A DNA stretch of 64,000 nt from an uncultured Thermodesulfobacteriota bacterium (lineage in GTDB: Bacteria > Desulfobacterota > Anaeroferrophillalia > Anaeroferrophillales > Anaeroferrophillaceae): contig CAYZIS010000013.1 in assembly GCA_964478545.1 (NCBI GenBank), positions 3,747 through 67,746 of the forward strand. Direction: 5' to 3'. Made by a program: the position numbers and the translations under genes. Shown here piece after piece: positions 40,137-59,792 of the stretch (its first letter is position 1; each line of letters starts with the position of its first letter). The notes under the pieces are model-generated. The model had not been told where the DNA came from and did no database searches. It saw only the letters and a program-made list of their open reading frames with translations.

Positions 40137-41141
40137 TTGACGGGGGGGACATTGTTGCGGCAATCGGAATCAGGCTGGTCGGCGGTGGCCGGGATTACCC
40201 TCATTGAGCTGCTCGTCACCCTGACCATCGGGGCGATCATCTTCGCCGCCCTTACCGGGGTGGTTTTCCAGGGGCTGCAGTATCATGCCGCCGTCACTGA
40301 AAGAAACGAGCTTTCCCGGCAGGCTCACTTTGCCATGGAACGGATGGTTTCGGCCCTGCGGAATACCAGGCTGCTGCTGCTGCCTTTTAGTGACAATGAT
40401 TCCACCAACTGGCCTGAAAACATTCGTGAAGAAACGGTGCCTGCCTCGCCGCCCATTGGGGATAGCACCAAGGCCACCGCCGTACTGGCCGTTACCCTAC
40501 CGCTGACGTATGATCTGGACCATGATGGTTTTTCCGATGCCGACGACGACCGAGACGGCAAAATAGACGAAGATCTGCCGGCCGGTAAAACTCACGATTC
40601 TGCCTCTGGCATCTACCTTATTGATGACGATGGTGATGGTTGGGTCGATGAAAGTTTTAATATCGCTGATGATGACGAGTACATTTCCTGGCCCGACGAA
40701 GATCCCATCGACGGTATTGACAACGACGGCGACAATAATATCGATGAGGACCCCGGCGCCGACATGAACAGTGACGGTTGTCCCGGGATATGTTACGTGG
40801 ATGATGATGGTGACGGCCAGGTCGACGAGGGAAATGTGGCGGATGACGATGAGGATGGGCTGGTGGATGAAGACTGGTACAATGCCCTGGTTTTTTATCT
40901 GGACAATTCAACCATGAAAGAACGCACCCCGGTGCCGTGGGACGAGGATGGCAACGGCAACGTGGGCGGCCGGGATTTTGTCATCTCGGATATTGCCGAT
41001 AATGTCACTCTTTTTCGCATTGAGCGTCTTCCCCGGGCCGGCGGCCGGGCAACCCTGGTGGATATTACCTTGGAACTCACCGGCCCTGGCGACGACACCG
41101 TGACTCTCCACTGCCGGACCAGGGTGGGAGCGGCACAGTGA
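40137..41141 (+). CDS. PilW/GspJ-like minor pilin with Asp-rich Ca-binding repeats
   Basis: AG|ITLIELLVTLTIGAIIF prepilin motif; repeated DxDxDGxxDE units. Confidence 0.8.
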   Translation: MTGGTLLRQSESGWSAVAGITLIELLVTLTIGAIIFAALTGVVFQGLQYHAAVTERNELSRQAHFAMERMVSALRNTRLLLLPFSDNDSTNWPENIREETVPASPPIGDSTKATAVLAVTLPLTYDLDHDGFSDADDDRDGKIDEDLPAGKTHDSASGIYLIDDDGDGWVDESFNIADDDEYISWPDEDPIDGIDNDGDNNIDEDPGADMNSDGCPGICYVDDDGDGQVDEGNVADDDEDGLVDEDWYNALVFYLDNSTMKERTPVPWDEDGNGNVGGRDFVISDIADNVTLFRIERLPRAGGRATLVDITLELTGPGDDTVTLHCRTRVGAAQ

Positions 41142-44100
41142 AAAAATCAGCACTCACCAATAACCACGGCTATATTCTGCTGCCGGTGATCATGATGTTC
41201 AGCCTGCTGGCGGCCATCGCTTTCCTGGTGAACCGGAACAATAGCGTCCCCTTGCGGATGATTGTTAATGATGCCCAGGTGGACCAGGCCCTGGCCGTTG
41301 CCGGGGCCGGCCTGGAGCATGCCAAATGGCTGGTCCAGGACAATGTCTGCGGTGGTGATTTGATTCTTGGGGCCACCGCTCTTGGCGATCACAGCTATAC
41401 GGCCACGGTGGATGCCGCTGCCACCACCACCAACCATTACACTTTGCAGCCGGACCGGGATGCCGCGATCCAGGAAACGGCCCCGGGTCAAAACTTTGGA
41501 AACAGCACCGCCATGGCGGTGAAAACTCAGGCGGGAGATAGTCGGCGGGCCCTTTATCATTTTGTCCTCTCGATCATCCCGGAGCAAACCCGGGTAACCT
41601 CGGCGACCCTGTGGCTCCATGTTATCGATAATGATTCTCTGGGCACCATCAACCTCCACCCGGTCAATGATACCTGGATAGAAAATTGGGTAACCTGGAA
41701 CAACATTGCTGCAAGTTATGATGACCAGGTTCTGGGCCGTATTTCCCCGCAGTTGAGCGGCAACTCTTGGGTGGCGATCAACTTGACGGCTATGACCCAG
41801 TTTTGGGTCAACAATCCTTCTGCCAACCATGGAATGATGTTGATCTCGGCGCTGGAAGACAGCCTGGAATCCACCTATACAAGCGACGATTCCGGCAGCC
41901 TGTGCCCGTACCTGGAGATCAGCACTGCGGTTGGTGCCACTTCACCGGTCACCATCACTGCCAGCGCCACTCTTGATTCCGGGGTGATCCGCACCCTGAG
42001 CCGGGTGGCATACAAGGCCTATCAGCGGAGTACTACTATTATCTTGCAGCCGGATGCGGCGGCGGGCAAGGATGCCTATGTATCTATTTTTTGGTCCAGC
42101 GGGAACTACGGCGCCAGCGATGATCTCTGGGTGCAAGATTGGGATAATGACGTTGATAAAGTTCATTATAAAAGCCTGCTCTGGTTTGATATCAGCCCTA
42201 TCCCCATCGGCTCCAGGGTGCTGAGCGCTGTCCTTTCCCTTTACCAGAACACCCCCAGTACCAACGGCGGACTGGTGGAAGTGCACCGGGTGACCAGTGA
42301 CTGGGTCGAAGGTGATGAAAACGGATCTTCAGGTGCGGGTGCCACCTGGGATGACCGCGATACAGGCCTGCCGTGGAACACCAACGGCGGGGACTATGAT
42401 TTAATTCCAATTGCCAGCACCCAACTTCCTGCTGGGATCAAGGATTGGTTTGATTGGGATATTACTGAACTGGTGAATGGCTGGATCAACGGTGCCTATG
42501 ACAACAACGGTCTGATCCTGCTGCCCGGGGCCTATGGCACCGCCGTCTGTTTCAACAGCAGTGATGAGGGTAAGAAAGATGCTCCCCTGTTGACCATCAC
42601 CTATGCCTGTGAATGCGGTGACGCCGGGGTTGCGCCCCAAGGCTCCGGCAGGGTGTTGCTGGTGGTGGACAGGCCCTACAATCTTACCGCGAATGAAGTG
42701 ATTAAAAAATCCTTGTTTGAGGCCTGGGGTTATACCGTCACCTTGATTAATGATGATGACGATTTCGAAGATGAGTTGGCTGCCAACGATGTGGTCTATG
42801 TTTCTGAGAGTGTCAATTCGTCTGATATCGATACCAAGCTCACCAATGCCACCATCGGCGTGGTAAATGAAGAAGGCTATTTAAATGATGAGTTAGGGAT
42901 CGAGTCCGACAATTCCAGCAATTGGCCGGTGGGCGATAGCCTTGAGATCACAGACAATAGCCATTATATCACGGTGCTCTTTCCTCATGGGGTGCTGCCT
43001 ATCTACCGTGCTGATATGCAGGGACTGGCGGTAGGGAGCACTCCGGCGCCGGATTTACAGACCTTGGCCAACTGGAGTTCCTGGCCGACCATCGCGACGC
43101 TGGATGCCGGGGCTGCCAAGGCCGGCGGCGGTACTGCTGCCGGACGCCGGGTCATGCTGCCCATCGGCCGTGATGGTTCTGTCCACTGGCGCTATATCAA
43201 CAATAACGGTCTCCTGATTGTCCAGCGGGCCCTCCAGTGGGCGGCTGGCGGTGAACTATCGTTTGATCCTGGTTTAATCGCCCACTGGAAGCTTGATGAC
43301 GGCAGTGGAACAACCGCCGTGGATTCAGTGGGTGGACATGACGGAACTCTTGCAGGTGATCCGAACTGGGTGGCAGGTGCGTTTGGGGGTGCCCTGGATT
43401 TTGACGGCAGTGGCGATTATGTGGATGTTGGCCATGTGTTGGATGGTGGTGTCCAGCAAATCTCGGTGACCGCCTGGATCTTTAAACGTGATTCTGGGGA
43501 CGACCGCGTTATCTGCAAGTCTTCAGGTACCGCGATTGTCGATCATATCTTTTCGCTTGGGGTGGCAGATACCACGATCCGTGTTAGGCTGGGAACAACA
43601 GACAACGGAGGAACGGACAATTATGATGGCGGATTAATTCCCTTGAATGCGTGGGTTCACCTGGCGTTCACATACGATGGCGCCATGCTGAGAATATATA
43701 AGAATGGGACGGAAACGGCGTCTTATGCGGTTACGGGAGATATGATTGCTTCCACGCTGGCTGTTGCCATTGGTAATGTGAATGCCACCGATGATCGTTA
43801 CTGGAACGGTCTGCTTGACGATGTCCGTATCTATGACCGGGCGATGACCGCCGGCGAAGTTGTTGCTCTGACGGTTGGCACCTTCCTGGATGAATTTAAT
43901 AATCAGAGCTATGGCAATAATGACGGCAGTCTGTCGTGGGCTGCCGGCTGGGTCGAGGGCGGAGAAACAACCGATCCCATTGATGGGGATCTCCAGGTTG
44001 TCGCCGATATCAGCAACTACCAGCTGCGGCTCAGGGATAACGGTCGAAACGTCATGCGCGAAGCCAACCTCAGCGCCTTTACGTTCGCGACCCTCAGTTT

Positions 44101-44356
44101 CGAGTACCGGCGTGACAGTCTGGACAAAACGGGTGAGTTTTACGATATCCAGGTTTCCGGGGACGGTGGCACCACCTGGCATGATTTGGATCGTTTTGCC
44201 GGCCCGGCCACTGATGGGGCTTATACCCTGGTCAGTTACGATATTTCCGCCTACTGTGCCTCGAATACCCAGATTCGATTCATCTCTTCGACAGCGAATA
44301 TGTCAGATGGAGACCTTGTCTGGATCGACAACGTCGAGATTTCCTGCAGCCCATGA
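41138..44356 (+). CDS. Giant PilX/GspK-like minor pilin adhesin (2x DNRLRE, unassigned alpha/beta domain, LamG, C-terminal beta-sandwich)
   Basis: HG|YILLPVIMM...ALAVAGAGLEHA; DRDAAIQE..RALYHF..SATLWL and KDAYV..SLLWFD..SAVLSLY; AHWKLDDGSG...WVHLAFTYDG...GLLDDVRIYDRA. Confidence 0.8.
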   Translation: MKKSALTNNHGYILLPVIMMFSLLAAIAFLVNRNNSVPLRMIVNDAQVDQALAVAGAGLEHAKWLVQDNVCGGDLILGATALGDHSYTATVDAAATTTNHYTLQPDRDAAIQETAPGQNFGNSTAMAVKTQAGDSRRALYHFVLSIIPEQTRVTSATLWLHVIDNDSLGTINLHPVNDTWIENWVTWNNIAASYDDQVLGRISPQLSGNSWVAINLTAMTQFWVNNPSANHGMMLISALEDSLESTYTSDDSGSLCPYLEISTAVGATSPVTITASATLDSGVIRTLSRVAYKAYQRSTTIILQPDAAAGKDAYVSIFWSSGNYGASDDLWVQDWDNDVDKVHYKSLLWFDISPIPIGSRVLSAVLSLYQNTPSTNGGLVEVHRVTSDWVEGDENGSSGAGATWDDRDTGLPWNTNGGDYDLIPIASTQLPAGIKDWFDWDITELVNGWINGAYDNNGLILLPGAYGTAVCFNSSDEGKKDAPLLTITYACECGDAGVAPQGSGRVLLVVDRPYNLTANEVIKKSLFEAWGYTVTLINDDDDFEDELAANDVVYVSESVNSSDIDTKLTNATIGVVNEEGYLNDELGIESDNSSNWPVGDSLEITDNSHYITVLFPHGVLPIYRADMQGLAVGSTPAPDLQTLANWSSWPTIATLDAGAAKAGGGTAAGRRVMLPIGRDGSVHWRYINNNGLLIVQRALQWAAGGELSFDPGLIAHWKLDDGSGTTAVDSVGGHDGTLAGDPNWVAGAFGGALDFDGSGDYVDVGHVLDGGVQQISVTAWIFKRDSGDDRVICKSSGTAIVDHIFSLGVADTTIRVRLGTTDNGGTDNYDGGLIPLNAWVHLAFTYDGAMLRIYKNGTETASYAVTGDMIASTLAVAIGNVNATDDRYWNGLLDDVRIYDRAMTAGEVVALTVGTFLDEFNNQSYGNNDGSLSWAAGWVEGGETTDPIDGDLQVVADISNYQLRLRDNGRNVMREANLSAFTFATLSFEYRRDSLDKTGEFYDIQVSGDGGTTWHDLDRFAGPATDGAYTLVSYDISAYCASNTQIRFISSTANMSDGDLVWIDNVEISCSP

Positions 44357-44514: not shown

Positions 44515-46377
44515 GTGGCTAAAGCCGTAAAAAAACAGATGCCCTCCAACCAGCGGCTGGGCCTGATGGTGCTGCTGGCTTCCGTGGTCGCCGCCGGTCT
44601 GGTAATATTTTTTTTCCTCAACCAGAACCGGCAGCTCAACACAGACCAGCTTCATCGCCAGGGTTATCAGCTGGTTCGCCTGCTGGCGAAAATCATTCCC
44701 GCCGAGCCGGAGAGTTCCACCTCGCGGTTGGCGGAAGTGCGGCATACCCTGGCCGGGGTTGAAGACATGCCGTCTTTCGCCTTTCTGGCAATTCTTGATC
44801 AAAAGGGGGTGGTGCTGGAACGTCTGGCGCCGCCGGGGGGCACTCTGCCCTCCTTCAGTCCTGATCCTGATCCGGCTTCCTGGTATTATGAACGGATCGG
44901 CAGAAAGATGCCCGGCAGTGGCAAGCTGATGGAGTTTGGAGCGCCGCTGCTTCGTAGTGGTGAGTTGTACGGTCACCTGACCCTGGGCTTTTATGAGCCG
45001 ACGATCAATGTTATCGGCCATTATCGGGGTCTGCTGGCTGATATGTTTCTGCCCATCTTCCTGCTCGGGACCATCTTCTACCTGCTGTTAAAACAGGAAA
45101 CCAAGGTGATTTCTACCCTGAGCGGTGAGATCAGGAAGCTGATTGATAACGATAAGCTGCCTTCAGGGGTCAGCTTCAAAGCTTCTGGGGAAGTAAGGGA
45201 ACTGGCTGACGACTTAAACCAGCTGCTGCAGAAAAATATTTCGCGCCTCAAGGAGATGGAGGATGAGTATTCCCGGGTGCTGGATTCCAGCAAGGTGGTC
45301 CAGTATAAGAAAAACCGACTGGAAGCAATTTTCGAGCTGATGCCCGACGGCTTTTTAATCATGGATGATGCCTGCAGTCCTACCTATGTCAACCGCAGGT
45401 TCGCCGCCCTCCTGGGCCTGGAGCCCAAGGATATCATTGGCAGTCATTATCACCTCTGGTGCCATAACGAGCGGCTGTCGGCGCTTTTTTCCCGCTACCA
45501 GAGCGGCGGCAAGGAATGCCTTCGCCGGTCTGAGGAGATCTCTTTCGTGCCTGAACATGCTCCGGGGACAACCATCCTGGTCCGTTTCATTCCCTTTTCC
45601 CAGCGGGACAAAGGTGCCGTTTCCGGCATCCTGGTGCTGGCCCATGATGTGACCGCCGAAGTCATGGCCGAGAAGGCCCGGGATGAATTTATCGCCCAGG
45701 TTTCCCATGAATTGAAGGCGCCGCTCAATGTGATTAAAATCTATAATGAGATGCTGATGGGCGAGGACGGAAAGCAGGAATCATTTCGCCTGGAGGCGGT
45801 GAACACCATCAATGACGCGGTTGAGCGCCTGACGATGCTGATTAAAAATCTGCTCTCCATTTCCCAGATTGAAATGGGTAGTATCGTGGTTGAGCGGCAG
45901 CGGATCAAGCTGCTTGAGCTGGTGCAGGATGTCTTTTCGCTGATATCCAAGACCGGGGGGAGGGATGAACTTGAATTCCATCTCGATCTGCCCCGGAAAA
46001 TGAGTCATGTGAATGTGGACAAGGACCTGATGAGTGTGGCACTCAACAACCTGTTGACCAACGCGGTCAAATACAACCGGCCGGGGGGCAGGGTGGACGT
46101 GGCCGTTGAGGAAAACAGCGAAGAGATTCTCATCAGGGTCCGGGATACGGGCATCGGCATTGCCGCCGGGGACCAGAAAAATATTTTTGACAAGTTTTAT
46201 CGCTCTGCTGACGAAAAGGTACGAGGCAGGGAAGGTCACGGACTGGGCCTGTCTCTGGCCAAGGCCATCGTCGAGCTGCATAATGGCAGGCTGCTGGTGG
46301 ACAGTACCCCGGGTGAGGGGACTGAATTTACCATTGTTCTGCGAAAAACGGAAGGCCTGGTGAAGGAATCTCTATGA
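44515..46377 (+). CDS. Membrane sensor histidine kinase (2 TM, PAS, HisKA, HATPase)
   Basis: VSHELKAPL, NLLTNAVKYN, DTGIGI, GHGLGLS. Confidence 0.95.
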   Translation: MAKAVKKQMPSNQRLGLMVLLASVVAAGLVIFFFLNQNRQLNTDQLHRQGYQLVRLLAKIIPAEPESSTSRLAEVRHTLAGVEDMPSFAFLAILDQKGVVLERLAPPGGTLPSFSPDPDPASWYYERIGRKMPGSGKLMEFGAPLLRSGELYGHLTLGFYEPTINVIGHYRGLLADMFLPIFLLGTIFYLLLKQETKVISTLSGEIRKLIDNDKLPSGVSFKASGEVRELADDLNQLLQKNISRLKEMEDEYSRVLDSSKVVQYKKNRLEAIFELMPDGFLIMDDACSPTYVNRRFAALLGLEPKDIIGSHYHLWCHNERLSALFSRYQSGGKECLRRSEEISFVPEHAPGTTILVRFIPFSQRDKGAVSGILVLAHDVTAEVMAEKARDEFIAQVSHELKAPLNVIKIYNEMLMGEDGKQESFRLEAVNTINDAVERLTMLIKNLLSISQIEMGSIVVERQRIKLLELVQDVFSLISKTGGRDELEFHLDLPRKMSHVNVDKDLMSVALNNLLTNAVKYNRPGGRVDVAVEENSEEILIRVRDTGIGIAAGDQKNIFDKFYRSADEKVRGREGHGLGLSLAKAIVELHNGRLLVDSTPGEGTEFTIVLRKTEGLVKESL

Positions 46378-46760
46378 GTAAAAAAAAGATTATGCTGGTG
46401 GAGGATGATGTAAGCGTCTCCCGGATACTGCAGCTGACCATTGAACGTCAGGGGCATGAAGTGCACTGCGCCGGCAACGGGGAAGTGGCCCTTAAGGTCA
46501 TGGAGGAATACTGGCCTGAGGTGCTGATCACCGATATCAATATGCCCCGTATGTCCGGCCGGGATCTGTGCCTGCAGCTCAACGAGCGCTATCCGGATCG
46601 TAAGTTGATGATTGTGATCATGACCTCGATGACCGAGCGGCAGGAAAAGGAATGGATTGGTCAATTTCCCCGCATCCACTTTATGGAGAAACCGTTGAGC
46701 CCGAAACGCCTGCTGGCCCTGATTGAAACCACAGGTGATCCAACTGCTGAGAACGGCTGA
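46374..46760 (+). CDS. Single-domain response regulator
   Basis: LVEDD, TDINMPRMSG, EKPLSP. Confidence 0.93.
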   Translation: MSKKKIMLVEDDVSVSRILQLTIERQGHEVHCAGNGEVALKVMEEYWPEVLITDINMPRMSGRDLCLQLNERYPDRKLMIVIMTSMTERQEKEWIGQFPRIHFMEKPLSPKRLLALIETTGDPTAENG

Positions 46761-46770
46761 AGGGATTCCC

Positions 46771-48282
46771 ATGAAAAATCTGCTGCAAAAAATAGATTTT
46801 CCCTATTATCACCGGCTTTTTCACCGGCTCTATTCCACCGGGCTGAAGATGGCTTTCTGCGATCTCGAGGGCAAAGTGCTCTGGCCGGAGGATGGGAAAG
46901 TGGATGATGCCATGGAGTCAGCCCTGGCGGCGCTCTGCCCCGAGGACGATCTTTCCACCCTGTCTCCAGCTGCCGGAGGCGGCTGTTGGACAAGGGAATT
47001 GTCAGGCGGTCTGTATGTCTGCCCGGTACAGCTTATCGGTGAGCACCTGATCGGCTGGCTGGCAATCCTGGTTGATGAAATCCTCGGGGAAGACGAGGCC
47101 CAAAAGCTTAAGGGACTGGTGGATGATGTGGCTGCCGGCATCACCAGGGACTGTCGCTATGAACATGATCTTGATAATTTGGTTGATGAAGTGGCAAAGC
47201 GCTACGAGGAACTGCATCTTGTCTACGGTATGCGCGACCTGATCAAGGAATACCATTACAGCCAGGATATCTTCGAGCCTTTGCTTGAAAAATGTCATCT
47301 TGCTCTGGATACTTCTTTGACCGCTTTCATCTTTCCGGACCGGGATCTGCAGTTGTATCGGCAGGACCCGGCAAAAGATATAGATAACCTCGACCTTCTC
47401 CTGACCAGGATGAACAGTGAAATCTGCCGGTTTATTGCCAGCAGCAAGGAACCCCTGGTGCTCAATCGTGAGGATGATTCCCGCCGGAAGTACTTATGGT
47501 CCGGGGTGCCCTGGAAGATTATGGCTATCCCGATCATGGTTGAACGGAAGATGGTTGCCGCCATTATGATGCTGAGGGCGGCTGATCAGCCGGATTTCAG
47601 CAACAGTGACCGGAATATCAGCGAGGCAATTGCCGAACAGCTGGGCATTATTATCCTCAATCAGGTTATCTACGGCAAGCTGGAGAGTTTTTCCGAGGAG
47701 ATGGCCGCCACCATGATAGAATCCATTGATGCCAAGGATCCCTACACCCGGGGCCATTCAGACCGGGTGAACAGGTATTCCATGGCCATCGGCGAAGCCT
47801 TGAACTTCCCTGAACAGGACATGAAAAACCTCTACTGGTCTTCGCTGCTCCATGACCTGGGAAAGCTCGGGATTCCTGACCAGGTTCTGGGCAAGGTGGG
47901 AAAGCTGGATGAGGATGAATATACCATGATCAAGTCCCATTCCCAGTGCAGCCATGATATCATTGCCCACGTGAAGCGCCTGGCCCCGTCGCTGCGGGCC
48001 ATTCTCCATCACCATGAGCGATATGACGGCACCGGTTATCCTGATGAACTGGCCGGGTTGGCTATCCCCCTGCATGCCCGGATTATTGCCGTGGCGGATA
48101 CTTTTGATGCCATTACCAGTTCCCGTTCATATCGGCCCTCCCGTTTAGTCAGCGAAGCGATGGTGGAACTGCAGCGGGTCAAAGGCACCCAGCTTGATCC
48201 GGAACTGGTTGATTTGTGGCTGGATGTCTATACAACAAAATTTGCGCCGGCAGCCGGAACCCGGACCGGGGAGAAAGAGTAG
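46771..48282 (+). CDS. GAF-containing HD-GYP c-di-GMP phosphodiesterase
   Basis: KDPYTRGHSDRV, LHDLGKLG, HHERYDGTGYPDEL, IIAVADTFDAITS. Confidence 0.93.
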   Translation: MKNLLQKIDFPYYHRLFHRLYSTGLKMAFCDLEGKVLWPEDGKVDDAMESALAALCPEDDLSTLSPAAGGGCWTRELSGGLYVCPVQLIGEHLIGWLAILVDEILGEDEAQKLKGLVDDVAAGITRDCRYEHDLDNLVDEVAKRYEELHLVYGMRDLIKEYHYSQDIFEPLLEKCHLALDTSLTAFIFPDRDLQLYRQDPAKDIDNLDLLLTRMNSEICRFIASSKEPLVLNREDDSRRKYLWSGVPWKIMAIPIMVERKMVAAIMMLRAADQPDFSNSDRNISEAIAEQLGIIILNQVIYGKLESFSEEMAATMIESIDAKDPYTRGHSDRVNRYSMAIGEALNFPEQDMKNLYWSSLLHDLGKLGIPDQVLGKVGKLDEDEYTMIKSHSQCSHDIIAHVKRLAPSLRAILHHHERYDGTGYPDELAGLAIPLHARIIAVADTFDAITSSRSYRPSRLVSEAMVELQRVKGTQLDPELVDLWLDVYTTKFAPAAGTRTGEKE

Positions 48283-51518: not shown

Positions 51519-51599
51519 TAAAAGTATTGAAAATATTAGAAAAAGAGAAAAACCAGACAGGGATGTCAGTTTAAACCCAACAACAAGAGGATGGGAGTT

Positions 51600-52127
51600 A
51601 TGAAAAATCGTATCGAATGGAATGAGAAAATGGGGAAAAGGGGTTTTACCCTGATTGAATTGTTGATCGTGGTGATTATCCTGGCCGTCCTGGCTGCGAT
51701 TGTCATCCCACAGTTCAGCAGTTCCACCAAGGATGCCCAGGAATCGGCGCTGGATACCAACTTGACTGAAATGCGCAATGCGGTGGAATTGTACTATCAC
51801 CAGCATGGCTCAGTCTATCCGGCTTTCGTTGGTGACGGGACCAATGCGGCGGAAACCGAGGCCACCCTCTTGAGCCAGCTTACTCGCTATACTGCTATGG
51901 ACGGGGCTGTCAGTGATACGAAAGATGCCACCAACAAGTATGGTCCATACCTGAAAAAACAGGAATTGCCCACCAACCCCATCGATGGCAATACCAACTG
52001 GGTCTTCAATGCTACTAATAAGGGCAGCCTTGCTGAGCCTGCCGCCGCAACCGCAGCTGGCGGCTGGTGGTATGATACTACCTCGGGGAAACTCATCTGT
52101 AATATCGTCGGGTATGAAAGCCGCTAA
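51600..52127 (+). CDS. Major (pseudo)pilin, GspG-like
   Basis: KRG|FTLIELLIVVIILAVLAAIVIPQF...MRNAVELYYHQHGSVYP. Confidence 0.9.
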   Translation: MKNRIEWNEKMGKRGFTLIELLIVVIILAVLAAIVIPQFSSSTKDAQESALDTNLTEMRNAVELYYHQHGSVYPAFVGDGTNAAETEATLLSQLTRYTAMDGAVSDTKDATNKYGPYLKKQELPTNPIDGNTNWVFNATNKGSLAEPAAATAAGGWWYDTTSGKLICNIVGYESR

Positions 52128-52142: not shown

Positions 52143-52622
52143 ATGAGACGGGATGGATTTACCCTGATTGAGATTATGGTGGTCGTGGGGATCCTCAGTA
52201 TTGTCGCAATGCTGACGATCCCCACTTTTCATTCTGCCGGGGATGAAAAGAAAGTTGCCGGGGCCGCCCAGGAGATTGCTGATGCCCTGTGCTATGCCAG
52301 GAGCGAGGCCATGAAAATTGGACGGGAGTACCGGGTTGAGCTGGTGACCGCGGCAGAGCAGGTTGAGGTTTTTGACCATCAGGCCGATACTGTGGTCTAT
52401 CATCCAACCAGCAAGCAGCTCTATCGCCTTACCTTCGGTAGCGAGGGCATCTTTGCCGGCGTGGATCTCGAGTCGGTCAATGGCGGAACCGGCAACTTTC
52501 CGCTTGTTTTTACTGCCGACGGCAGGACTTCCACTGACTATGTTATTGCACTGGCCTACGCTGGCTACGAGGTGAAAGTTTTTGTCAACGCGCTTACCGG
52601 CCGGGTGACCACAGGCCCATGA
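52143..52622 (+). CDS. FimT/GspH-like minor pilin
   Basis: DG|FTLIEIMVVVGILSIV...ARSEAMK. Confidence 0.88.
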   Translation: MRRDGFTLIEIMVVVGILSIVAMLTIPTFHSAGDEKKVAGAAQEIADALCYARSEAMKIGREYRVELVTAAEQVEVFDHQADTVVYHPTSKQLYRLTFGSEGIFAGVDLESVNGGTGNFPLVFTADGRTSTDYVIALAYAGYEVKVFVNALTGRVTTGP

Positions 52623-52643
52623 GGAAATGGCAGGGAATGGATC

Positions 52644-53141
52644 ATGGGGAAACTTCAGGGCTATAGCCGCCGGGGACTGGCATTGCCAGCCGGGGATCGG
52701 GGTTTTTCCTATGTGGAAATACTGGTGGCAATAGTTCTGATCGCTGTCTGCCTTATCCCCGCCCTGAAATCCCTGAGCCCGGCATTTTTTGGCATTATGG
52801 AACGGGAGAAACTGGGCAGTAATTACTTGGCTGTTCGTTCAAAGTTGGAGGAGGTTCTGGCAGCTTCCTATAGAGATTTGGAGATCGCCGCCCAGGACGC
52901 TGGTGGTCCACTGGTGCCGTCCAGTCTTTCTGAACCTGCCTATATGACTTCGGATGGCCGACAGATCGTCCTGCAGGTGTATCTCTCCGGCTATGATGCA
53001 GATAATGACGATGGGGACAATGATCATTTTACCGGCACCAATCAGGGCATCCTCTGGGTCAAGGTGCAGGTGGATGGTTCGCCCGAGAGCCTGGAAACTC
53101 TCACCAGCATGTACGAGCAGGAAGGAAGTTTTAAACCATGA
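52644..53141 (+). CDS. PilV/GspI-like minor pilin
   Basis: RG|FSYVEILVAIVLIAV; contains a DADNDDGD loop. Confidence 0.8.
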   Translation: MGKLQGYSRRGLALPAGDRGFSYVEILVAIVLIAVCLIPALKSLSPAFFGIMEREKLGSNYLAVRSKLEEVLAASYRDLEIAAQDAGGPLVPSSLSEPAYMTSDGRQIVLQVYLSGYDADNDDGDNDHFTGTNQGILWVKVQVDGSPESLETLTSMYEQEGSFKP

Positions 53142-54325
53142 GAGCGATCACTCATCTTTTCAGCAACTGGAATATTCTCCAGTATGGCAATCCCGAGATA
53201 GATGACTATGCCAAGGGTCTGCTGGTGCTGGAAACCCGCCAGGGACTGTTTTCCTTGAGTCTGATCCTGGTTTTTCTGCTTGGTAGCGCCGCTATCATAA
53301 GCATTGCCCTCCATATGGACAGCTTTTATCTGCTGACCTATACCCCGCTGGCAGCCCTCTGCCTGCATATTTTACTCTCTTCATATCGGATCGACAGCAT
53401 CGAAGCCCAGCAGCTCCTGGCCATTGTTCTCCTGGTAGTCTGCAGCACAGCCTTTGTCCTCCTGGCCCACAAGACTGGCAAGTTCAGCCTGCCGGTGCTG
53501 GCTGGCATTGCCCTGCTTTTTACGGTTGTACCTCTTATGCCCTGGGGACTGCGGGAGGCCAGTGCGGCCTGCTCCCTTATTTATCTGGTGTTTACCTTGT
53601 CAACCTTAAGTGTCAGGGGACGTTTCGATTATGAAATTCTTTTGCTGCTGCAGTTTTTCATGATTAGTGCCGCTCTTATCTCCCTGACGGTTGTTTCCCG
53701 GAACAGCAGCGTTCGTCGCAAAGAAATTATCAGCATGTACAATCTCGAAAATGCCCATGCCAAGATGGCGAAACTTTCTTACCAGGATCCGCTGACCGGT
53801 GCCTGGAACCGCCGTTACCTGACGGAAAATTTTCGTTCCCAAGTGGCGAAATATCAGCGGGGTGGCAAACATTTTTCTTTCATCCTGGTTGATTTTAATA
53901 ATTTTAAATTGCTCAATGATACCTATGGCCATGATTACGGGGATATGGTGCTGCGGCATTTTTGCCAGGCGATAATGGAGAACCTGGCCCCGGATGATGT
54001 GCTGGTCCGTATGGGTGGGGATGAATTTGCGCTTATGATTGCCGCCGAACCCCGAAAGCGCCTTGCCGACGGCATCGGGCTTTTCAAAAAACGTCTGCAG
54101 GGGGAAACCGCTACCGGTGTCAATGAAGTGACGGTAACCTGCGGCTTGTTGAGCGTCTCCCCTGAACCTGATTCGGTTTTTAAGGATATTTACCAGGCGG
54201 CGGATAAGGCTATGTATCAAGGCAAAGGGGTCAAAAAGAACCAGATTATTGAAGTAGACAAGACTACTTCCGGGAGCTACATTATCGTTGATCTTGATGC
54301 GGAAATGACAGGAACAGAGAAATGA
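53138..54325 (+). CDS. Multi-TM GGDEF diguanylate cyclase without an RxxD I-site
   Basis: About 6 TM helices, DPLTGAWNRR, APDDVLVRMGGDEF; overlaps its neighbours by ATGA. Confidence 0.92.
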   Translation: MRAITHLFSNWNILQYGNPEIDDYAKGLLVLETRQGLFSLSLILVFLLGSAAIISIALHMDSFYLLTYTPLAALCLHILLSSYRIDSIEAQQLLAIVLLVVCSTAFVLLAHKTGKFSLPVLAGIALLFTVVPLMPWGLREASAACSLIYLVFTLSTLSVRGRFDYEILLLLQFFMISAALISLTVVSRNSSVRRKEIISMYNLENAHAKMAKLSYQDPLTGAWNRRYLTENFRSQVAKYQRGGKHFSFILVDFNNFKLLNDTYGHDYGDMVLRHFCQAIMENLAPDDVLVRMGGDEFALMIAAEPRKRLADGIGLFKKRLQGETATGVNEVTVTCGLLSVSPEPDSVFKDIYQAADKAMYQGKGVKKNQIIEVDKTTSGSYIIVDLDAEMTGTEK

Positions 54326-55458
54326 AATTTTCGGGTAGTATTTTAAATGGGAGTCTTGCCCGGGGTCGCGGAAATGGTCCGGGTCCCATCGGTTTTGATC
54401 TGGCGGCGGAAAAACTGAACTTGCTGCAGGTTGAGCGAGATGATGGCGGAGTGTTTGTGCGGGCTGCGGCGTCTGTTCCCTATCCTGATACCTGTGAAGA
54501 ACTGATTGCATCCCCCAAGGCCCTGCGCAAATTTGTTCTCGGCGCACTTAAATTAAAGCCTTTTAAAGGCAGGAACATTGTTACCTGCATGCCGAAAAAC
54601 AGTACAAAAATTTTCAACCTTAAATACCATCACCATCCACATGAAGATAATCTTGGGGCCATTATCGCCGGGGTGAAGGAGAAAATAGTCGGCGAGGTGG
54701 AAGATTATGTGATTGATTATCTGCCGACCCGTTATGAGAAAAAAACGGCAGATGAGCACTCCATCCTGGTGGCGGCGGCCAGGCGGGATGAAATCATCTC
54801 CTACCTGGAGCTGCTGCATGGAATAAGCCTTCAGGTCGATGCCATAGATATCGGGCCTTCGGCCCTGCGGCGCCTGGTCGCTCTGATGAATCCCGGTGAA
54901 GACTATCCATATGTATTATTGATCAACTTTGGCAGAAAAAAGACTTATTTGACCGTGACCACCGGGCTGCGTCTGATGATGGACCGCGAGGTTGATTTTG
55001 GCGAGCAGCTGCTGGTAGCCGAGTTGTGCCGGGCCCTGGACATCCCCGAAGAAAAAGCGCTCCATTTTCTCTACCATTACGGCATTGATTGGGATGTCAA
55101 CGCCAAGCAGGAGCAAAGGGATGATCAGAAGGCAAAAGAGATAATTTCGACGATTACCGAAATCCTGACTCCGGTTTTTATGAAGTTTGTTGTTGAGGTG
55201 AACAAGGTCCTTATCTACACGGCTTCTGAGACCAGGGGCGGGGCAATTAAAAAGATCTACCTGCTTGGCAGTGTAGCCCGTTATCCCATGGCGGCTTCAT
55301 TCCTTGCCAAGATGTTTACCATTTCGGTTGAAGTCCTGAATCCATTTTCAGAATTTTCATCCCGCAGTGACAGTGCCATTCCTGCCGACCTGGATCCCAT
55401 TGCCGGGATTGCTTTGGCCACCGGTTTTGCCCTGAGAGGGATGTATGACTATGCGTGA
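54322..55458 (+). CDS. pilM: PilM-type actin-like alignment protein
   Basis: IGFDLAAEKLNL, YVIDYL, AIDIGPSAL, LINFGRKKT, IYLLGSVA, ALATGFALRG. Confidence 0.85.
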   Translation: MKFSGSILNGSLARGRGNGPGPIGFDLAAEKLNLLQVERDDGGVFVRAAASVPYPDTCEELIASPKALRKFVLGALKLKPFKGRNIVTCMPKNSTKIFNLKYHHHPHEDNLGAIIAGVKEKIVGEVEDYVIDYLPTRYEKKTADEHSILVAAARRDEIISYLELLHGISLQVDAIDIGPSALRRLVALMNPGEDYPYVLLINFGRKKTYLTVTTGLRLMMDREVDFGEQLLVAELCRALDIPEEKALHFLYHYGIDWDVNAKQEQRDDQKAKEIISTITEILTPVFMKFVVEVNKVLIYTASETRGGAIKKIYLLGSVARYPMAASFLAKMFTISVEVLNPFSEFSSRSDSAIPADLDPIAGIALATGFALRGMYDYA

Positions 55459-56110
55459 AATTGATCTGGTTCCTGATGACTATCGGCAGTCACTGGGCCT
55501 CCGGCGAGTGCTGACTCAGTTTATCGCTGTTTTTTTCTGTCTGGTCCTGATTGTTGCCGGTGGTCGTTTGTGGCTTGGACAATTGATGCGCTCAGAGAAA
55601 AGGATGGTTGAGAAACTGGGGGTTAGTGAGAGTGCCCTCCTGAACAAACAGAAAAGCATAGCCGATCTGCGGGAACAAAAAAGAGGTTTAACCGAACGGC
55701 TGGCGGTTCTGGATATGCTGCGTGGCGGCCCCCAGGCCGTCCGCTTATTTGAAGTTGTGGATCGATCTATCAACCCGTCAATCTGGTTTGACGACTGGAA
55801 GTTTGTCCGGGAAGCGAAAAAAACGGAAAAAAAACCGCATGGCCAGCTCCAGGCAGGATATTTTATCGTTATTCCGGCGGAAAAAAAACAGGGGAGTGGG
55901 GGTGAAGTCTGGCGGAAGAACATGCATATGGATATCTCCGGGCAGGCGCTCAACCATGCCTCACTGGCTGATTTCGTCCGCAAGCTGCTGGTCCAGCCGG
56001 AAATTGATGACGTCAAGGTGATTTCAACCTTAACCCGCCAGTATCAGGGGGCTGAAGTCATCAATTATGATCTGGTGGTGCTGGTCCATCCCAAAAGGAA
56101 GAAATTGTGA
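55445..56110 (+). CDS. pilN: PilN domain protein
   Basis: MREIDLVP N-terminus, TM, coiled coil, ISGQA. Confidence 0.8.
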   Translation: MTMREIDLVPDDYRQSLGLRRVLTQFIAVFFCLVLIVAGGRLWLGQLMRSEKRMVEKLGVSESALLNKQKSIADLREQKRGLTERLAVLDMLRGGPQAVRLFEVVDRSINPSIWFDDWKFVREAKKTEKKPHGQLQAGYFIVIPAEKKQGSGGEVWRKNMHMDISGQALNHASLADFVRKLLVQPEIDDVKVISTLTRQYQGAEVINYDLVVLVHPKRKKL

Positions 56111-56667
56111 TTGATCATCTGTTGAAACGGGGAATTCCTCCGAGGATCATGTATCTTGTTCTGGTTTCTATTGTCCTGCTTACCGGTTTGGCTTCCTATC
56201 TCTATCTCTATAAAAAACCCCTGGCCGAGTATGACAGGCTGAAACATAATCATATCCTCCTGCAGGGTAAGACGGGAAACAAGTCCCAGGTGCAGGCGGA
56301 TCTTGATCGGCTTACAAAAGAAATACAGGGCATTCGGCAGGAGCTTCAGGGCGATACCCCTGCATTGTCAGTGAATGCCCTGGTTGCCTATGCCATTGAA
56401 AAGATTGACGTCATTTCCGACCGGCATCAGGTTCAATTTGTCAGTGTCAAACCCGGAACCGGCAATCGGGTGTTCCAGTTTGAAGAGATTCCTTTTGTGG
56501 TTGAAGTAGCCGGGGATTATTTCAGCCTCTACGGATGGCTGTATGATCTTGAGAAGGAATTGGGTCCCATGGTGGTAAAAGAGTATGAGCTGAAGCCAGA
56601 TAACCGGACGAAAAAACTGACGATGAAACTGGAGATAGCTTCCTATCGACCGGTGGAGATGAAATGA
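56107..56667 (+). CDS. pilO: PilO-type protein
   Basis: TM, coiled coil, EIPFVVEVAGDYFSLYGWLYDLE. Confidence 0.8.
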   Translation: MIDHLLKRGIPPRIMYLVLVSIVLLTGLASYLYLYKKPLAEYDRLKHNHILLQGKTGNKSQVQADLDRLTKEIQGIRQELQGDTPALSVNALVAYAIEKIDVISDRHQVQFVSVKPGTGNRVFQFEEIPFVVEVAGDYFSLYGWLYDLEKELGPMVVKEYELKPDNRTKKLTMKLEIASYRPVEMK

Positions 56668-57032
56668 TGGCAAAACTTATCAGCAGTATCCTGCTGGCGG
56701 CCAGCCTTTTTATTGCCATACCGGCTTTTTCCACCGAGGTGGGGATGCCGTTGCACCTAAGCCGGGATCCTTTCGCCCACCCGGTGTTGGTACAAGTTTC
56801 TGCACCATCACCACCAACGGTGGTGAAGGTTGATGACGCAGATGTCTGGAAGGAGAAAATCCATCTGCAGGCCATTATGATTACCCGTAAGTGGACGATT
56901 GCCAACGTTAATGGGAAGCTGCTCACTCCCGGGGAGAGCGTTGAGGGGTATAAGCTGGTCAAGGTGATGGAACGAAAGGTTCTGTTCAGGAAGGATGGCA
57001 GAGATATCCTGGTGAGGATGGATAATGAGTGA
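56664..57032 (+). CDS. PilP/MshK-like small exported protein
   Basis: Signal peptide, RDPF, LQAIMI...ANVNGKLLTPGESVEGYKLVKV. Confidence 0.7.
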   Translation: MMAKLISSILLAASLFIAIPAFSTEVGMPLHLSRDPFAHPVLVQVSAPSPPTVVKVDDADVWKEKIHLQAIMITRKWTIANVNGKLLTPGESVEGYKLVKVMERKVLFRKDGRDILVRMDNE

Positions 57033-57148
57033 ATAAAAACAGTGAAAAAATGGTGCGAGGTTTGGGGGGAAATCATCAATAGACTTTTTGTCTGAATCTG
57101 GCAAGCTTGTCATTATCAGGATGAATCCGGCAATCGGGTAAAAAATGC

Positions 57149-57175
57149 TAAACATAGTCCGGTTTATGCCGATGA
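57149..57175 (+). promoter_or_regulatory. sigma-28-like promoter of the GH153-secretin gene
   Basis: TAAA-N15-GCCGATGA. Confidence 0.65.
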
Positions 57176-57302
57176 GATTGTTATGGTATGTGAAAAAGTA
57201 TCAGAATTACTAAACTTTTCACTCAATTGCTTTTCCGGATGGTTTCATGTGCCGGCTGAATGGTGTCCGGAATAAAAAGTTGTTTTGTTACTGTGGACTG
57301 AG

Positions 57303-59792
57303 ATGAAACTGAAATTGACACTAAGATTTGTGCTGTTGACCATCTGTATCTGGGGATGTATTGATTCCCTGGTGATTTCGGCTGGCTATGCCCGAGCCGA
57401 TGACCAGGTGATCGGGGCCCAGATTTCAGTGCTTGAACAGAAGACGCCGGCAGAGCTGCAGAGCTTTTTTGCTCGGCTGCGGAACAGCGGTTTCAATACC
57501 GTCGTTCTGAGGGTGTTTCACAACCGCTGTGACCGCTATCACCGGTTTGATCATTCAACGAGCACAACACCGCCGAAAGAAGGGGTCTATTTCCAAACCT
57601 CCCAGGTGCCGGTGGTCAACAACCTGCTGCCTGATGTCTGTCGTGCGGCCCATGCCGAAGGATTGCGGATTTTCGCCTGGATGACGACCCTGCAGGCTAA
57701 TTACAGTTACCGTGATTTGCCCCGGGTCTACGCTTACGATTTTCTCCACAACCGTTATCAGCAAACCGGTGCTCTTGATCCAGCGGCTGAAAAAAACCGG
57801 CAGTTTCTGACGGCGTTATACCGTGACCTGGCTGCCAATCCCATTGACGGCATTCTCTTCCAGGATGACCTCCAGCTCAAACATGCCGAGGGGTTCCATC
57901 GCGATCCAGCTGGCAAGTCATTTGTCCCCAACGGGGAAACGCTGTATCGTTATGGTGAGGAGGGGAAGCGGATTACTGATTATCGACCGGCCTTCTGGAA
58001 GTGGAATGAACAAAAAGCATCTTCTCTCCAGTGCCTGGCTAATTCCATTATGGAGGCCTGCCGGCAGGTGAAACCTGGCTTGCGGTTTGCTCAGAATATT
58101 CATTATGAACTTTTGCTGAAACCGCGCTGGGGTCGGGCTTGGTTCTCCCAGACGCCTGAGTCGCTGGTTTCTTCAGCCGCCAATTATTTTTTTGTCATGT
58201 CTTTTCAGCGGCAAATCCGTCAGGAACTTGACGTTGTTTCGGATAAGGAACTTGATGAAGTCATGAACCGGATGTTTTGTTCCAACCCGCTTTTGGACCA
58301 GAACCAGCATCAGCTGATTTTCAAACTTCAGGTGACAGACTGGCAGAGCGGTGAACCTGAATCACCCAAACGAATGGCCCGGATGCTCCGCCTGTTGAAA
58401 CAGTCAAATCATCTATCGGCGATCATGACCCCCTATAATAAAAATTATTTTGCCCGGGAAATAGGAAGTTTTGCCGCTCGGAAAGAGGTTGTCGTTACTC
58501 CCGCAGCAATGCCGGCGGCAGACGTTCATCCCGTCGTTGTCAAGCCTTCCCGGAAACCTGCTAAAGCCAGTTCTGCTCCGGCAAAAGAGAAGAAGAACCT
58601 GGTTACCATGACTTTTCGTGATACTGATATAGCTGAAGTTTTTGAGATGTTGGCAAAAGGATATCGGGTTAACATCCTTATGGGTAAAGGGGTGGATGGT
58701 GATGTCTCATGCAGCCTTTATGATATGAAACTGGATGATGCCATCTACACCATTGCCGAGGCGGTGGGCTGTGGGGTTGAAATGGTAGAGGGTAGCTATC
58801 TGATTCTTCCCAAGGATCAGCTCAGCGGCTTGGGCGAGGGCCGTCGGGGTGTTGAACTATTGACCTATAAATCGCAATTCGTGGCTCCTGACAATCTCAA
58901 GGAGGCACTCACTGATCATGTTACCAAAAATGCTAAAATTACCATTGTTAAAGAAAACAATATGCTGGTAGTTCAGGATACCAAAGAATCCATTTCCCGC
59001 ATTAAACAACTTTTGAAAGACCTTGACCGGCAGCCGGCCCAGGTCCTGATCGAGGCTAAAATTCTGGAGATAACTCTTGATAATTCCGAGACGTTCGGCT
59101 TAGATTGGAAACGGTTGTTTACCGTGGGAGGAGCTGATGCCACTATTGGCCTCCAGGGGTTTGCCAACCGGACTGCGACCGGTTTTGTGGCCAGCCTGTT
59201 TGACAGTAAAAAAATTGATATTGTTCTGAATGCCCTGAGCACCAAGGGCAGGTTGCAGACCCTTTCCACCCCAACACTTCTGGCGTTGGAAAACCAGGAA
59301 GCTGAAGTGATGATTGGCGGCCGGCAGGGTTACAAAGTAACCACTACCATAAATCAGGTAACCTCGGAAAGTATTGAATTCCTTGATTCCGGCGTCATCC
59401 TCAAGGTAACGTCATCCATCGATAACCAGGGACGAGTACAGATGCACATTCATCCGGAGGTGAGCACTGGTTCCTTCCAGGATGGCATTCCTTCCCAGAA
59501 CACCACCCTGGTGACCACCGATCTCCTGGCTGATGATGGCCAGACAATCTTTATCGGCGGCTTGATCAGAGAAAAGACTTATCATTCAAAACAGGGGATT
59601 CCAATACTTGGTGATATCCCCCTGGTGGGCAGGGTATTTTCCAGTACTGAAGAGACCCTTGGCAAAAGTGAAACCATTATCCTGATTACTCCTCATGTTA
59701 TCAGCAATGGATATGCTGGAGCCAATCAGAATGAAGTGCGAAAGGCGGCTGAAGTGGAAGATGAGATAGCGATGAGAAGCCCGAAGAGATGA
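57303..59792 (+). CDS. Secretin (GspD/PilQ/MshL-like) N-terminally fused to a PgaB-like GH153/GHL13 glycoside hydrolase domain
   Basis: Signal peptide; GFNTVVLRVF, GVYFQT..PV, GLRIFAWMTTL, PIDGILFQDD, WFSQ; Pro/Ala/Lys linker; VTMTFRDTDIAEVF, QVLIEAKILE, LENQEAEV, GIPILGDIPLVGRVF. Confidence 0.88.
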   Translation: MKLKLTLRFVLLTICIWGCIDSLVISAGYARADDQVIGAQISVLEQKTPAELQSFFARLRNSGFNTVVLRVFHNRCDRYHRFDHSTSTTPPKEGVYFQTSQVPVVNNLLPDVCRAAHAEGLRIFAWMTTLQANYSYRDLPRVYAYDFLHNRYQQTGALDPAAEKNRQFLTALYRDLAANPIDGILFQDDLQLKHAEGFHRDPAGKSFVPNGETLYRYGEEGKRITDYRPAFWKWNEQKASSLQCLANSIMEACRQVKPGLRFAQNIHYELLLKPRWGRAWFSQTPESLVSSAANYFFVMSFQRQIRQELDVVSDKELDEVMNRMFCSNPLLDQNQHQLIFKLQVTDWQSGEPESPKRMARMLRLLKQSNHLSAIMTPYNKNYFAREIGSFAARKEVVVTPAAMPAADVHPVVVKPSRKPAKASSAPAKEKKNLVTMTFRDTDIAEVFEMLAKGYRVNILMGKGVDGDVSCSLYDMKLDDAIYTIAEAVGCGVEMVEGSYLILPKDQLSGLGEGRRGVELLTYKSQFVAPDNLKEALTDHVTKNAKITIVKENNMLVVQDTKESISRIKQLLKDLDRQPAQVLIEAKILEITLDNSETFGLDWKRLFTVGGADATIGLQGFANRTATGFVASLFDSKKIDIVLNALSTKGRLQTLSTPTLLALENQEAEVMIGGRQGYKVTTTINQVTSESIEFLDSGVILKVTSSIDNQGRVQMHIHPEVSTGSFQDGIPSQNTTLVTTDLLADDGQTIFIGGLIREKTYHSKQGIPILGDIPLVGRVFSSTEETLGKSETIILITPHVISNGYAGANQNEVRKAAEVEDEIAMRSPKR

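Follow-up and report, generated by a model that had tools for sequence, protein, structure and literature searches.

Several described type IV filament systems each resemble, in part, the pilus locus at positions 40137-59792 of a 64,000-nucleotide stretch of contig CAYZIS010000013.1 (the window), which derives from an uncultured Thermodesulfobacteriota bacterium. The MshEN domain of the ATPases Vibrio MshE and Myxococcus PilB binds cyclic di-GMP (c-di-GMP) and controls piliation (PMC11656802, PMC7096442, PMC4624765). The mannose-sensitive haemagglutinin (MSHA) pilus of Vibrio cholerae, to which MshE belongs, is an adhesive, sugar-related pilus encoded in one large locus that includes the secretin and holds no gene for a retraction ATPase (PMC9815625). 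In the type IVa pilus (T4aP), the AMIN domains of the secretin PilQ bind peptidoglycan in the periplasm (PMC10653833). A bulky K subunit at the filament tip and lectin-bearing modular pilins are established in other type IV filaments (PMC9934059). Streptococcus sanguinis PilB and PilC are pilins of this kind, in which a pilin moiety carries grafted adhesive modules, a vWA domain in PilB and a concanavalin A (ConA)-like lectin in PilC, that are exposed at the pilus tip along with the other minor pilins (PMC9934059, PMC8179133).

The locus in the window is type IVa-like with MSH-like regulation, and it is set apart from T4aP, MSH and type II secretion systems (T2SS, Gsp) by profile cut-offs and gene content. 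It belongs to a conserved type IVa-like pilus family present in metagenome-assembled genomes (MAGs) of Desulfobacterota, Methylococcales-like Gammaproteobacteria and Nitrospirota. The hallmarks of this family are a giant putative tip pilin with CBM96 and LamG domains, a histidine kinase (HK), a response regulator (RR), c-di-GMP enzymes and a STAS protein. Judged from sequence, the locus would encode a self-contained type IVa-like pilus with a lectin-type tip adhesin, whose extension is gated by a local c-di-GMP circuit and whose secretin carries a periplasmic GHL13 module resembling glycoside hydrolase family 153 (GH153); we put the probability of this reading at about 0.65. No published description of this locus type, nor of DNRLRE domains with a pilin, was found in the literature searched.

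An open reading frame (ORF) listing combined with Pfam and NCBIfam scans shows that 17 genes, g01 to g17, all on the + strand, exactly fill positions 40137-59792. An earlier note on this DNA had counted 15 co-oriented genes; the co-orientation is correct, the count is not, and the note's own list expands to 17. Its domain assignments were borne out by the Pfam and NCBIfam scans, with the exception of the major pilin subtype discussed below. The majority of the gene junctions overlap or are shorter than 25 nt, and the only gaps are those between g02 and g03 (158 nt), g08 and g09 (145 nt) and g16 and g17 (252 nt). An independent, distant locus (L017) has counterparts of all 17 in collinear order at 27-60% identity, which far exceeds chance.

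A scan with the ATPase over one genome per GTDB species returned ten loci. Two are in Desulfobacterota-type MAGs (L004 and L005, with 77% and 69% ATPase identity), seven in Methylococcaceae MAGs (L006-L012, ~60%) and one in a Nitrospirae MAG (L013, 55%). Comparison of the 17 window proteins with these ten loci by tblastn gave a shared core made up of the HK, the RR, a GAF-containing c-di-GMP enzyme, STAS, the ATPase and PilC, which continues with the major pilin, the GspH-like, PilV-like and PilW-like proteins and the giant CBM96 protein. Homologues of the giant protein and the ATPase led to further contigs. The gene order in L017 is HK, RR, a small gene, GGDEF-EAL, a fused STAS-ATPase, PilC, pilin, GspH, PilV, PilW, the giant gene, GGDEF, PilM, PilN, PilO, PilP and the secretin. 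L019 has the gene set of L017 with the minor-pilin block inverted, and L020 and L004 have the Desulfobacterota arrangement with HD-GYP.

The giant subunit is a putative modular minor pilin of 1072 aa encoded by g02 (41138-44356) in the PilX/GspK position, and one of its homologues (P0124) is named 'PilX' by JGI. Pfam assigns to it two CBM96/DNRLRE domains (124.6 and 169.3 bits), a Disaggr_repeat and Laminin_G_3 (LamG_3, 96.9 bits). The modules are arranged as CBM96/DNRLRE at residues ~101-263 and ~311-488, an alpha/beta module at ~500-705, LamG_3 at 756-908 and a C-terminal beta-sandwich. The N-terminus (G11/YILLPV, with a hydrophobic helix at 13-31) is without Glu5 and has no Pfam N_methyl match; G11, L14, L15 and V17 of this G-x-x-L-L-x-V helix are invariant in the family alignment. 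The AlphaFold2 (AF2) model has a pLDDT of 70 with low confidence in the pilin part, and a Foldseek search with the whole protein gave only generic beta-sandwich, CBM/lectin and neurotoxin-Hc-type matches. Homologues of g02 have 750-1660 aa and a common module set. All seven loci reaching that far (the window, L004, L011, L015, L016, L017 and L019) have the giant CBM96/LamG gene after the PilW-like one. The tip subunit of carbohydrate-binding type that the earlier note had proposed would be g02, which is kept across the family loci. It resembles the S. sanguinis pilins in its grafted modules, which would be shown at the tip; it differs from them in its diderm host, its length (1072-1660 aa) and its tandem CBM96/DNRLRE domains plus alpha/beta module. 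The alpha/beta module (window 42600-43250) is conserved and Rossmann-like, with invariant W530-G531-Y532, H609 and R671. It found no match in Pfam and no assignment in the whole-protein Foldseek search, and it is duplicated in the longer homologues (1300-1660 aa).

Three smaller minor pilins accompany the giant subunit. The PilW/GspJ-like pilin g01 (40137-41141, 334 aa) has an N_methyl domain (PF07963, 23.6 bits) and the prepilin motif AG/ITLIELL; in L008, L011, L013, L016 and L017 its orthologues, at 31-60% identity, immediately precede the giant gene. The GspH/FimU-like pilin g10 (52143-52622) matches PF12019 GspH (26.2 bits) as well as N_methyl. The protein in the PilV/GspI position, g11 (52644-53141), has the motif DRG/FSYVEIL and a weak N_methyl match below the Pfam cut-off, and orthologues of it are found in L004, L008, L011, L016 and L017.

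The signalling part of the locus begins with g03 (44515-46377), a sensor HK with two transmembrane (TM) segments around a periplasmic loop of ~135 aa, followed by PAS-HisKA-HATPase_c (hydropathy scan and Pfam). Orthologues with 35-60% identity occur in L004, L006-L012 and L017. The next gene, g04 (46374-46760), encodes a stand-alone CheY-like receiver (PF00072, 70.7 bits) that adjoins the HK in related loci too. Gene g05 (46723-48282) encodes a GAF-HD-GYP c-di-GMP phosphodiesterase (HD_5, 129.6 bits) in which the HHERYDGTGYP motif is intact; gammaproteobacterial loci have GAF-GGDEF-EAL in its place, and L012 and L017 carry GGDEF-EAL there. The membrane-anchored diguanylate cyclase g12 (53138-54325) combines ~5 TM segments with a GGDEF domain (120 bits), and its GGDEF motif is intact and no RxxD I-site is present. 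A membrane GGDEF gene of the g12 type always lies directly upstream of pilM (L003, L004, L017 and L019).

The STAS-domain protein g06 (48283-48594; PF01740, 39.4 bits) is encoded directly upstream of the ATPase. In the Methylococcaceae-type loci L011 (9641-11677), L012 (9662-11695) and L017 (3685-5778) a single reading frame joins the STAS domain to the N-terminal end of the MshEN-T2SSE ATPase, giving proteins of 677-697 aa. The same fusion is found in most of 120 listed ATPase homologue clusters with at least 60% identity, mainly from gammaproteobacterial MAGs, and these proteins are annotated merely as 'PilB' or 'ATPase, T2SS/T4P/T4SS family'. Since STAS is fused to the ATPase in relatives, which is evidence of the Rosetta-stone type, the STAS protein would act on the motor. 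No published link between STAS and PilB was found in the literature searched. The built-in signalling claimed in the earlier note (HK, RR, HD-GYP, STAS and GGDEF genes) is present in the cluster and kept in related loci.

The secretin, g17 (57285-59792, 835 aa), has an N-terminal GH153-like module. A signal sequence with a conserved Cys (IWGC) precedes a GHL13 TIM barrel at residues ~40-398 (nt 57402-58478), which is joined by a Pro/Ala/Lys-rich linker (residues 399-436) to an N0-N1-secretin core (residues 437-835, nt 58593-59792). The GHL13 domain scores 78.2 bits with PF14883 (cut-off 27), and the AF2 model (pLDDT 78) shows a TIM-type barrel and a disordered linker at 401-432. The best Foldseek match of the barrel is PgaB's C-terminal domain (PgaB-C; E 3e-19, TM-score 0.76), followed by the peptidoglycan hydrolase Cwp19 (GHL10). 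A profile of the GHL13 subfamily likewise matches E. coli and Bordetella PgaB-C (4p7l, 4f9d and 6au1; E 6e-24 to 5e-20), and Cwp19 weakly. The GH153 domain that the earlier note had placed on the secretin was borne out, as a GH153-like domain, by these GHL13 and PgaB-C matches. No description of a secretin with a GH153 or other enzyme-type domain was found in the literature searched.

PgaB-C and the g17 domain have in common the (beta/alpha)8 fold, the catalytic Asp and probably a place as a periplasmic lipoprotein at an outer-membrane conduit (PMC5933820). However, the g17 domain is only 18-19% identical to PgaB-C, has Gln in place of His473, comes without a carbohydrate esterase family 4 (CE4) deacetylase domain and without pgaACD genes, and is fused to a secretin instead of docked to PgaA. 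The PgaB model TIGR03938 scores 89.1 against a cut-off of 321.9 and covers the C-terminal half only. The F-H-D-D motif of PgaB aligns with F192-Q193-D194-D195 of g17, and the Asp (D194, equivalent to Bordetella D474) is invariant. Mutation of His473 to Ala in Bordetella PgaB removed >90% of the activity, and D474 has been proposed as the catalytic residue (PMC5933820). Catalysis by the GHL13 domain is uncertain because the equivalent of His473 is Gln. The subfamily-invariant groove residues are all kept in 3/3 fused proteins, and the ligand site would therefore be under constraint.

The fusion itself is rare. A word-indexed search of 5.8 billion proteins found the GHL13-secretin architecture elsewhere only in P0001 (91% identity) and P0002 (77%). 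A full HMMER pass was also made over 1.84 billion 50%-identity representatives; among the best 150 matches listed, only one cluster has the fusion, matched across residues 7-835, and all the others correspond to just one of its two halves, GHL13 or secretin. Any very distant fusion scoring below ~190 bits would lie beyond these best 150. Pfam found no GHL13 in 20 secretin homologues with long N-terminal extensions, which instead have OmpA, AMIN, VWA or nothing assignable. OmpA lies ahead of N0 in L018, L019, P0153-55 and P0161, AMIN in P0152 with a weaker AMIN-like match in P0150, and VWA in P0196; these nearest longer orthologues are 48-56% identical to g17. The secretins of L014 and L017 have no extension (43-65% identity). 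L014, the sole locus returned by a metagenome scan with g17, is 65% identical over residues 428-808 and its signal peptide leads straight into N0, and the L017 secretin has 467 aa.

Because orthologous secretins carry nothing, OmpA, AMIN or VWA at this place, GHL13 is not a family trait, and modules appear to be swapped at the N-terminus in this secretin clade, a site that often holds peptidoglycan-binding domains. The fusion would be recent and lineage-specific, since L014 and L017 are without it and only one 50%-identity cluster has it. An artefact of assembly or a frameshift was ruled out by its occurrence in three independent assemblies, the continuous ORF and the Pro/Ala/Lys-rich linker. 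The only other lineage with the fusion is that of P0002, an NCBI MAG labelled Xanthomonadaceae bacterium GWP07. Its contig of 4.8 kb may be mis-binned; the other close relatives are Desulfobacterota-type MAGs. A spacer of 252 nt (57033-57284) precedes the fused secretin and is also present in L003, and the corresponding distance for unfused secretins is 3 nt in L014 and an overlap in L017. The DNA ahead of the fused gene probably came in together with GHL13.

The closest relatives of the GHL13 domain are stand-alone proteins of ~470 aa with 50-55% identity, encoded in the regions L001 10001-12775 and L002 10001-12873, and the type of donor gene is thereby identified. These genes lie right after mreB-mreC-mreD-pbp2-rodA-radA and are followed by an RR-HD-GYP gene, a context that hints at a role of the subfamily linked to the cell wall or to c-di-GMP. 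The HD-GYP domain beside the stand-alone GHL13 is ~41% identical to g05. A recent fusion of genes adjacent to one another in relatives was ruled out, as the closest stand-alone GHL13 genes are not beside pilus genes. The Cys after the signal hydrophobic region is found in the fused proteins (IWGC, LWGC) and in the stand-alone ones (LFSC), and short orthologues have none. This pattern suggests that the GHL13 members are PgaB-like lipoproteins with an atypical lipobox (Trp or Phe at -2).

Secretins have their N-terminal modules in the periplasm, which places the GH153-like domain away from the machine's outer end. Since sister secretins carry peptidoglycan-binding OmpA or AMIN domains at this place, the periplasm is the likeliest site of action for GHL13. 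There it would serve the secretin as an anchor or a clearing module that binds or cleaves glycan, either cell wall or periplasmic polysaccharide, and its target would not be extracellular. It has also been considered that the domain is non-catalytic and serves as an outer-membrane lipoprotein anchor, which would make g17 a self-piloting 'liposecretin', or as a docking site for export of the cell's own exopolysaccharide. The conserved Cys, absent from the short orthologues, the absence of a pilotin gene from the cluster and the Gln beside the catalytic Asp would all fit such a role. However, the lipobox is atypical, and the strict conservation of the groove residues in the fused copies argues for a retained ligand site. 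We hold this alternative to be doubtful.

The motor and the alignment complex bear on whether the locus is better assigned to a described system. The extension ATPase g07 (48598-50307) is of the PilB/GspE/MshE class (T2SSE, 465 bits) with an N-terminal MshEN domain (PF05157, 42.3 bits; NF053729, 54.3 bits against a cut-off of 38). Both c-di-GMP motifs of MshEN, 24 residues each and separated by the canonical 5 residues, lie within residues 14-66. The platform protein PilC/GspF is encoded by g08 (50327-51445; T2SSF twice, 168 bits). PilM (g13, 54322-55458; PilM_2 PF11104) scores 76.5 bits against a cut-off of 27 and PilO (g15, 56107-56667; PF04350) 25.7 against 22, and PilN (g14, 55445-56110; PF05137) is just under its cut-off of 22.8 with 21.1 bits. 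The small protein g16 (56664-57032) has a weak GspC/HR-like match (TIGR01713, E 0.003) and occupies the PilP position. The order PilM-PilN-PilO-PilP is conserved in L003, L014, L017, L018 and L019. The earlier note had called this alignment complex T4aP-type, and the separate PilM, PilN, PilO and PilP-position genes, with no T2SSL or T2SSM, agree with it.

The major pilin g09 (51591-52127) is a prepilin of 178 aa with the motif KRG/FTLIELL and an N_methyl domain (33.1 bits); together with g01 and g10 it makes up the set of genes with N_methyl prepilin motifs above the Pfam cut-off. With 45.7 bits against a cut-off of 88.85, the match to the GspG model is confined to the N-terminal helix (residues 17-78), and among solved structures Geobacter PilA-N and Neisseria PilE match best. 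The description of the major subunit as GspG-like, which came from the earlier note, lacks specific support. It was dropped, as only the universal N-terminal helix matches GspG/PilA models.

No curated equivalog threshold in NCBIfam was reached for GspE, GspF, GspG, GspD, PilB, PilC, PilQ, PilM or MshL. The ATPase scores 582.2 with GspE (cut-off 630.25) and 564.6 with PilB TIGR02538 (675.65), and the platform protein scores 288.2 with GspF (424) and 220-244 with the PilC models (700). PilM TIGR01175 gives 69 against 133. The secretin domain of g17 scores 138 bits, and the NCBIfam models give 184.6 for PilQ TIGR02515 (284.35), 181.5 for GspD (351.35) and 142.4 for MshL TIGR02519 (250.2). The view of the locus as a type IV filament system distinct from the described ones is upheld; it reached no curated T2SS, T4aP, MSH or Com equivalog threshold. 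With the T4aP of Pseudomonas and Myxococcus the locus shares separate PilM, PilN and PilO, a PilP-position protein, a secretin with periplasmic N-terminal modules, four core minor pilins and an extension ATPase that is predicted to bind c-di-GMP, as Myxococcus PilB does. It differs from T4aP in being one operon with no PilT or PilU in the cluster, in its unreached PilB and PilQ thresholds, in using a K-position modular pilin and not the non-pilin PilY1 as adhesin, and in having GHL13 instead of AMIN on the secretin.

The machine could instead be a variant of the T2SS, with a short endopilus that pushes folded, perhaps glycan-active, proteins through the secretin. GspE (582 bits) and GspF (288 bits) are the top NCBIfam models of the ATPase and the platform protein, though below cut-off, and the minor pilins form an H-I-J-K-like set with a GspH domain. 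However, all Gsp equivalog scores are below their cut-offs, and Pfam found no T2SSL, T2SSM or PDZ domain in the cluster proteins, where separate PilM, PilN and PilO stand in place of GspL and GspM and there is no GspC-PDZ. The closest PDB match of the ATPase is Geobacter PilB, with 459 bits versus 432 for Vibrio GspE. A lectin-like tip subunit of 1072-1660 aa would be sensible only on an exposed pilus, and the loci hold no conserved candidate secreted substrates. We consider a T2SS variant unlikely.

It is also improbable that the locus is simply a divergent MSHA pilus. In favour of this are the N-terminal MshEN c-di-GMP receptor of the ATPase, a single large locus that has the secretin but not pilT, and the adhesive role of the sugar-sensitive MSHA pilus. 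However, the secretin scores 142 bits with MshL against 250, which ranks this model under PilQ and GspD. PilM and PilN are separate, and no AAA (ExeA-like, MshM) or TPR (MshN) genes were found within 40137-59792. The gene order is also different, and the cyclase, phosphodiesterase, HK, RR and STAS lie inside the pilus operon here, whereas HK, RR and STAS are not part of the msh loci that the consulted papers describe.

The earlier note had further proposed that carbohydrate-active modules lie at both ends of the machine, so that a pilus tipped with DNRLRE/LamG would bind, penetrate or harvest extracellular polysaccharide. Spelled out further, this model would have the GH153 domain of the secretin cut the glycan, for example after strands are reeled into the periplasm much as competence pili take up DNA. 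The tip modules are indeed of carbohydrate-binding type, a GH153-like barrel with the catalytic Asp is tethered on the periplasmic side of the secretin, and both features occur together in the window and its sister strain (L003, L015). However, all other homologous loci keep the adhesin without the fusion, and for this reason the two are not a co-evolved pair. Their co-occurrence in homologous loci, the lack of which the earlier note had named as refuting its proposal, is absent outside the immediate lineage; the adhesin is the family trait and GHL13 belongs to the window's immediate lineage only. The change of His473 to Gln and the absence of a retraction ATPase, a sugar transporter and a further glycoside hydrolase from the cluster and the scanned window ORFs also argue against harvesting. 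Glycan modules at both ends are not a conserved design of the machine, GHL13 being a rare lineage-specific fusion, and the harvesting model is very unlikely. Just as slim is the chance of the combined proposal that the pilus of this lineage harvests a matrix or prey glycan, caught by the CBM96/LamG tip, through retraction, secretin threading and GH153-like cleavage in the periplasm, and that the family forms a new filament class whose ATPase is under the control of fused STAS and a private two-component and c-di-GMP circuit.

The preferred reading remains a self-contained, adhesive type IVa-like pilus under local c-di-GMP control, and the way in which it may work can be outlined. The periplasmic loop of the HK would sense an extracytoplasmic cue, leading to phosphorylation of the stand-alone receiver. 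The level of c-di-GMP would be set by the g12 cyclase and the g05 phosphodiesterase, and the ATPase would sense it through its MshEN domain, in the manner of Vibrio MshE and Myxococcus PilB; the STAS protein may act on the ATPase directly. Minor pilins of the H, I, J and K type (g10, g11, g01 and g02) would prime assembly and occupy the tip, where the K-position g02 would display its two CBM96/DNRLRE domains, alpha/beta module and LamG and so bind a surface or matrix of polysaccharide. The major pilin would polymerise on PilC and exit through PilMNOP and the secretin, and other parts of the genome would have to supply the prepilin peptidase and any retraction ATPase. In this narrow lineage alone, the secretin would have gained, at its periplasmic N-terminus, a PgaB-type domain that derives from a stand-alone paralogue, was probably a lipoprotein domain and is attached by a flexible linker of ~40 residues.

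Several observations weigh against parts of this picture. By eye, the g06 STAS domain appears to be without the phosphorylatable Ser of SpoIIAA-type proteins. Among the 24 window ORFs scanned, each 150 aa or longer, there is no pilT, prepilin peptidase or pga/pel gene, in agreement with the earlier note, which saw no PilT or prepilin peptidase in the cluster; with neither pilT nor pilD among them, retraction and pilin processing have to rest on other genes. The residue equivalent to His473 of Bordetella PgaB is an invariant Gln throughout this GHL13 subfamily. The mreBCD-pbp2-rodA and RR-HD-GYP context of the stand-alone genes fits cell-wall and exopolysaccharide roles alike. A characterised CBM96 domain binds alginate (PMC9971899); the Pfam family is broad, and the ligand of the CBM96/LamG modules in g02 is not inferable from the domains.

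The remaining window is made up of housekeeping genes (SecA, ArgJ, MurJ, YceG, a XerC/D-type recombinase, HslU-like, ArgB and AddAB-like genes). Upstream of the cluster, on the - strand (31767-39892), lie a PAS-GGDEF cyclase (31767-33185), a UvrD/AddA-like helicase (33336-36662) and a PD-(D/E)XK AddB-like nuclease (37085-39892), and these three neighbours recur in the sister contig L015. In base composition, g01-g11 have a GC content of 0.51-0.57 and a third-position GC content (GC3) of 0.57-0.71, and the other window genes have a GC content of 0.44-0.54 and a GC3 of 0.47-0.61. The values for the secretin g17 are 0.497 and 0.54, and the GC content of the downstream flank drops to 0.43-0.45. 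The GC-rich cluster core that the earlier note had seen by eye is real by these measurements, but modest. It was not accepted as proof of horizontal transfer because the adjacent addAB-like genes are intermediate; the GC3 of the upstream neighbours at 31767-39892 is 0.56-0.61, between that of the cluster and that of the rest of the window. Scans for promoters and terminators yielded about as many matches as expected from shuffling and were set aside.

Downstream of the secretin, a tRNA-Leu(CAA) gene follows directly at 60004-60090, and fragmented integrase-like ORFs lie on the - strand at about 59999-60845. An N-terminal fragment of HsdM is found near 61451, and a Schlafen AlbA_2/HATPase_c_4/HTH gene occupies 61930-63258. 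The same place in the sister contig L003 holds an intact type I restriction-modification system (HsdM-RhuM-HsdS). The region 59793-63258 looks like a variable tRNA-linked island or the remnant of a defence island.

The basic picture of type IV filaments is unchanged by these findings. What they add is a pilus family, spread over several phyla, that has a sensor kinase, a receiver, a c-di-GMP synthase and hydrolase and a STAS protein in its operon. The family would be a compact natural model of how local c-di-GMP and partner-type regulators gate a PilB-class ATPase. The giant K-position pilin would extend the concept of the modular pilin from a Gram-positive streptococcus to environmental diderms, and its CBM96/DNRLRE and LamG modules point to polysaccharide surfaces as the target of the pilus. 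A secretin with an enzyme-type domain could show how secretins deal with the cell wall or with periplasmic glycans.

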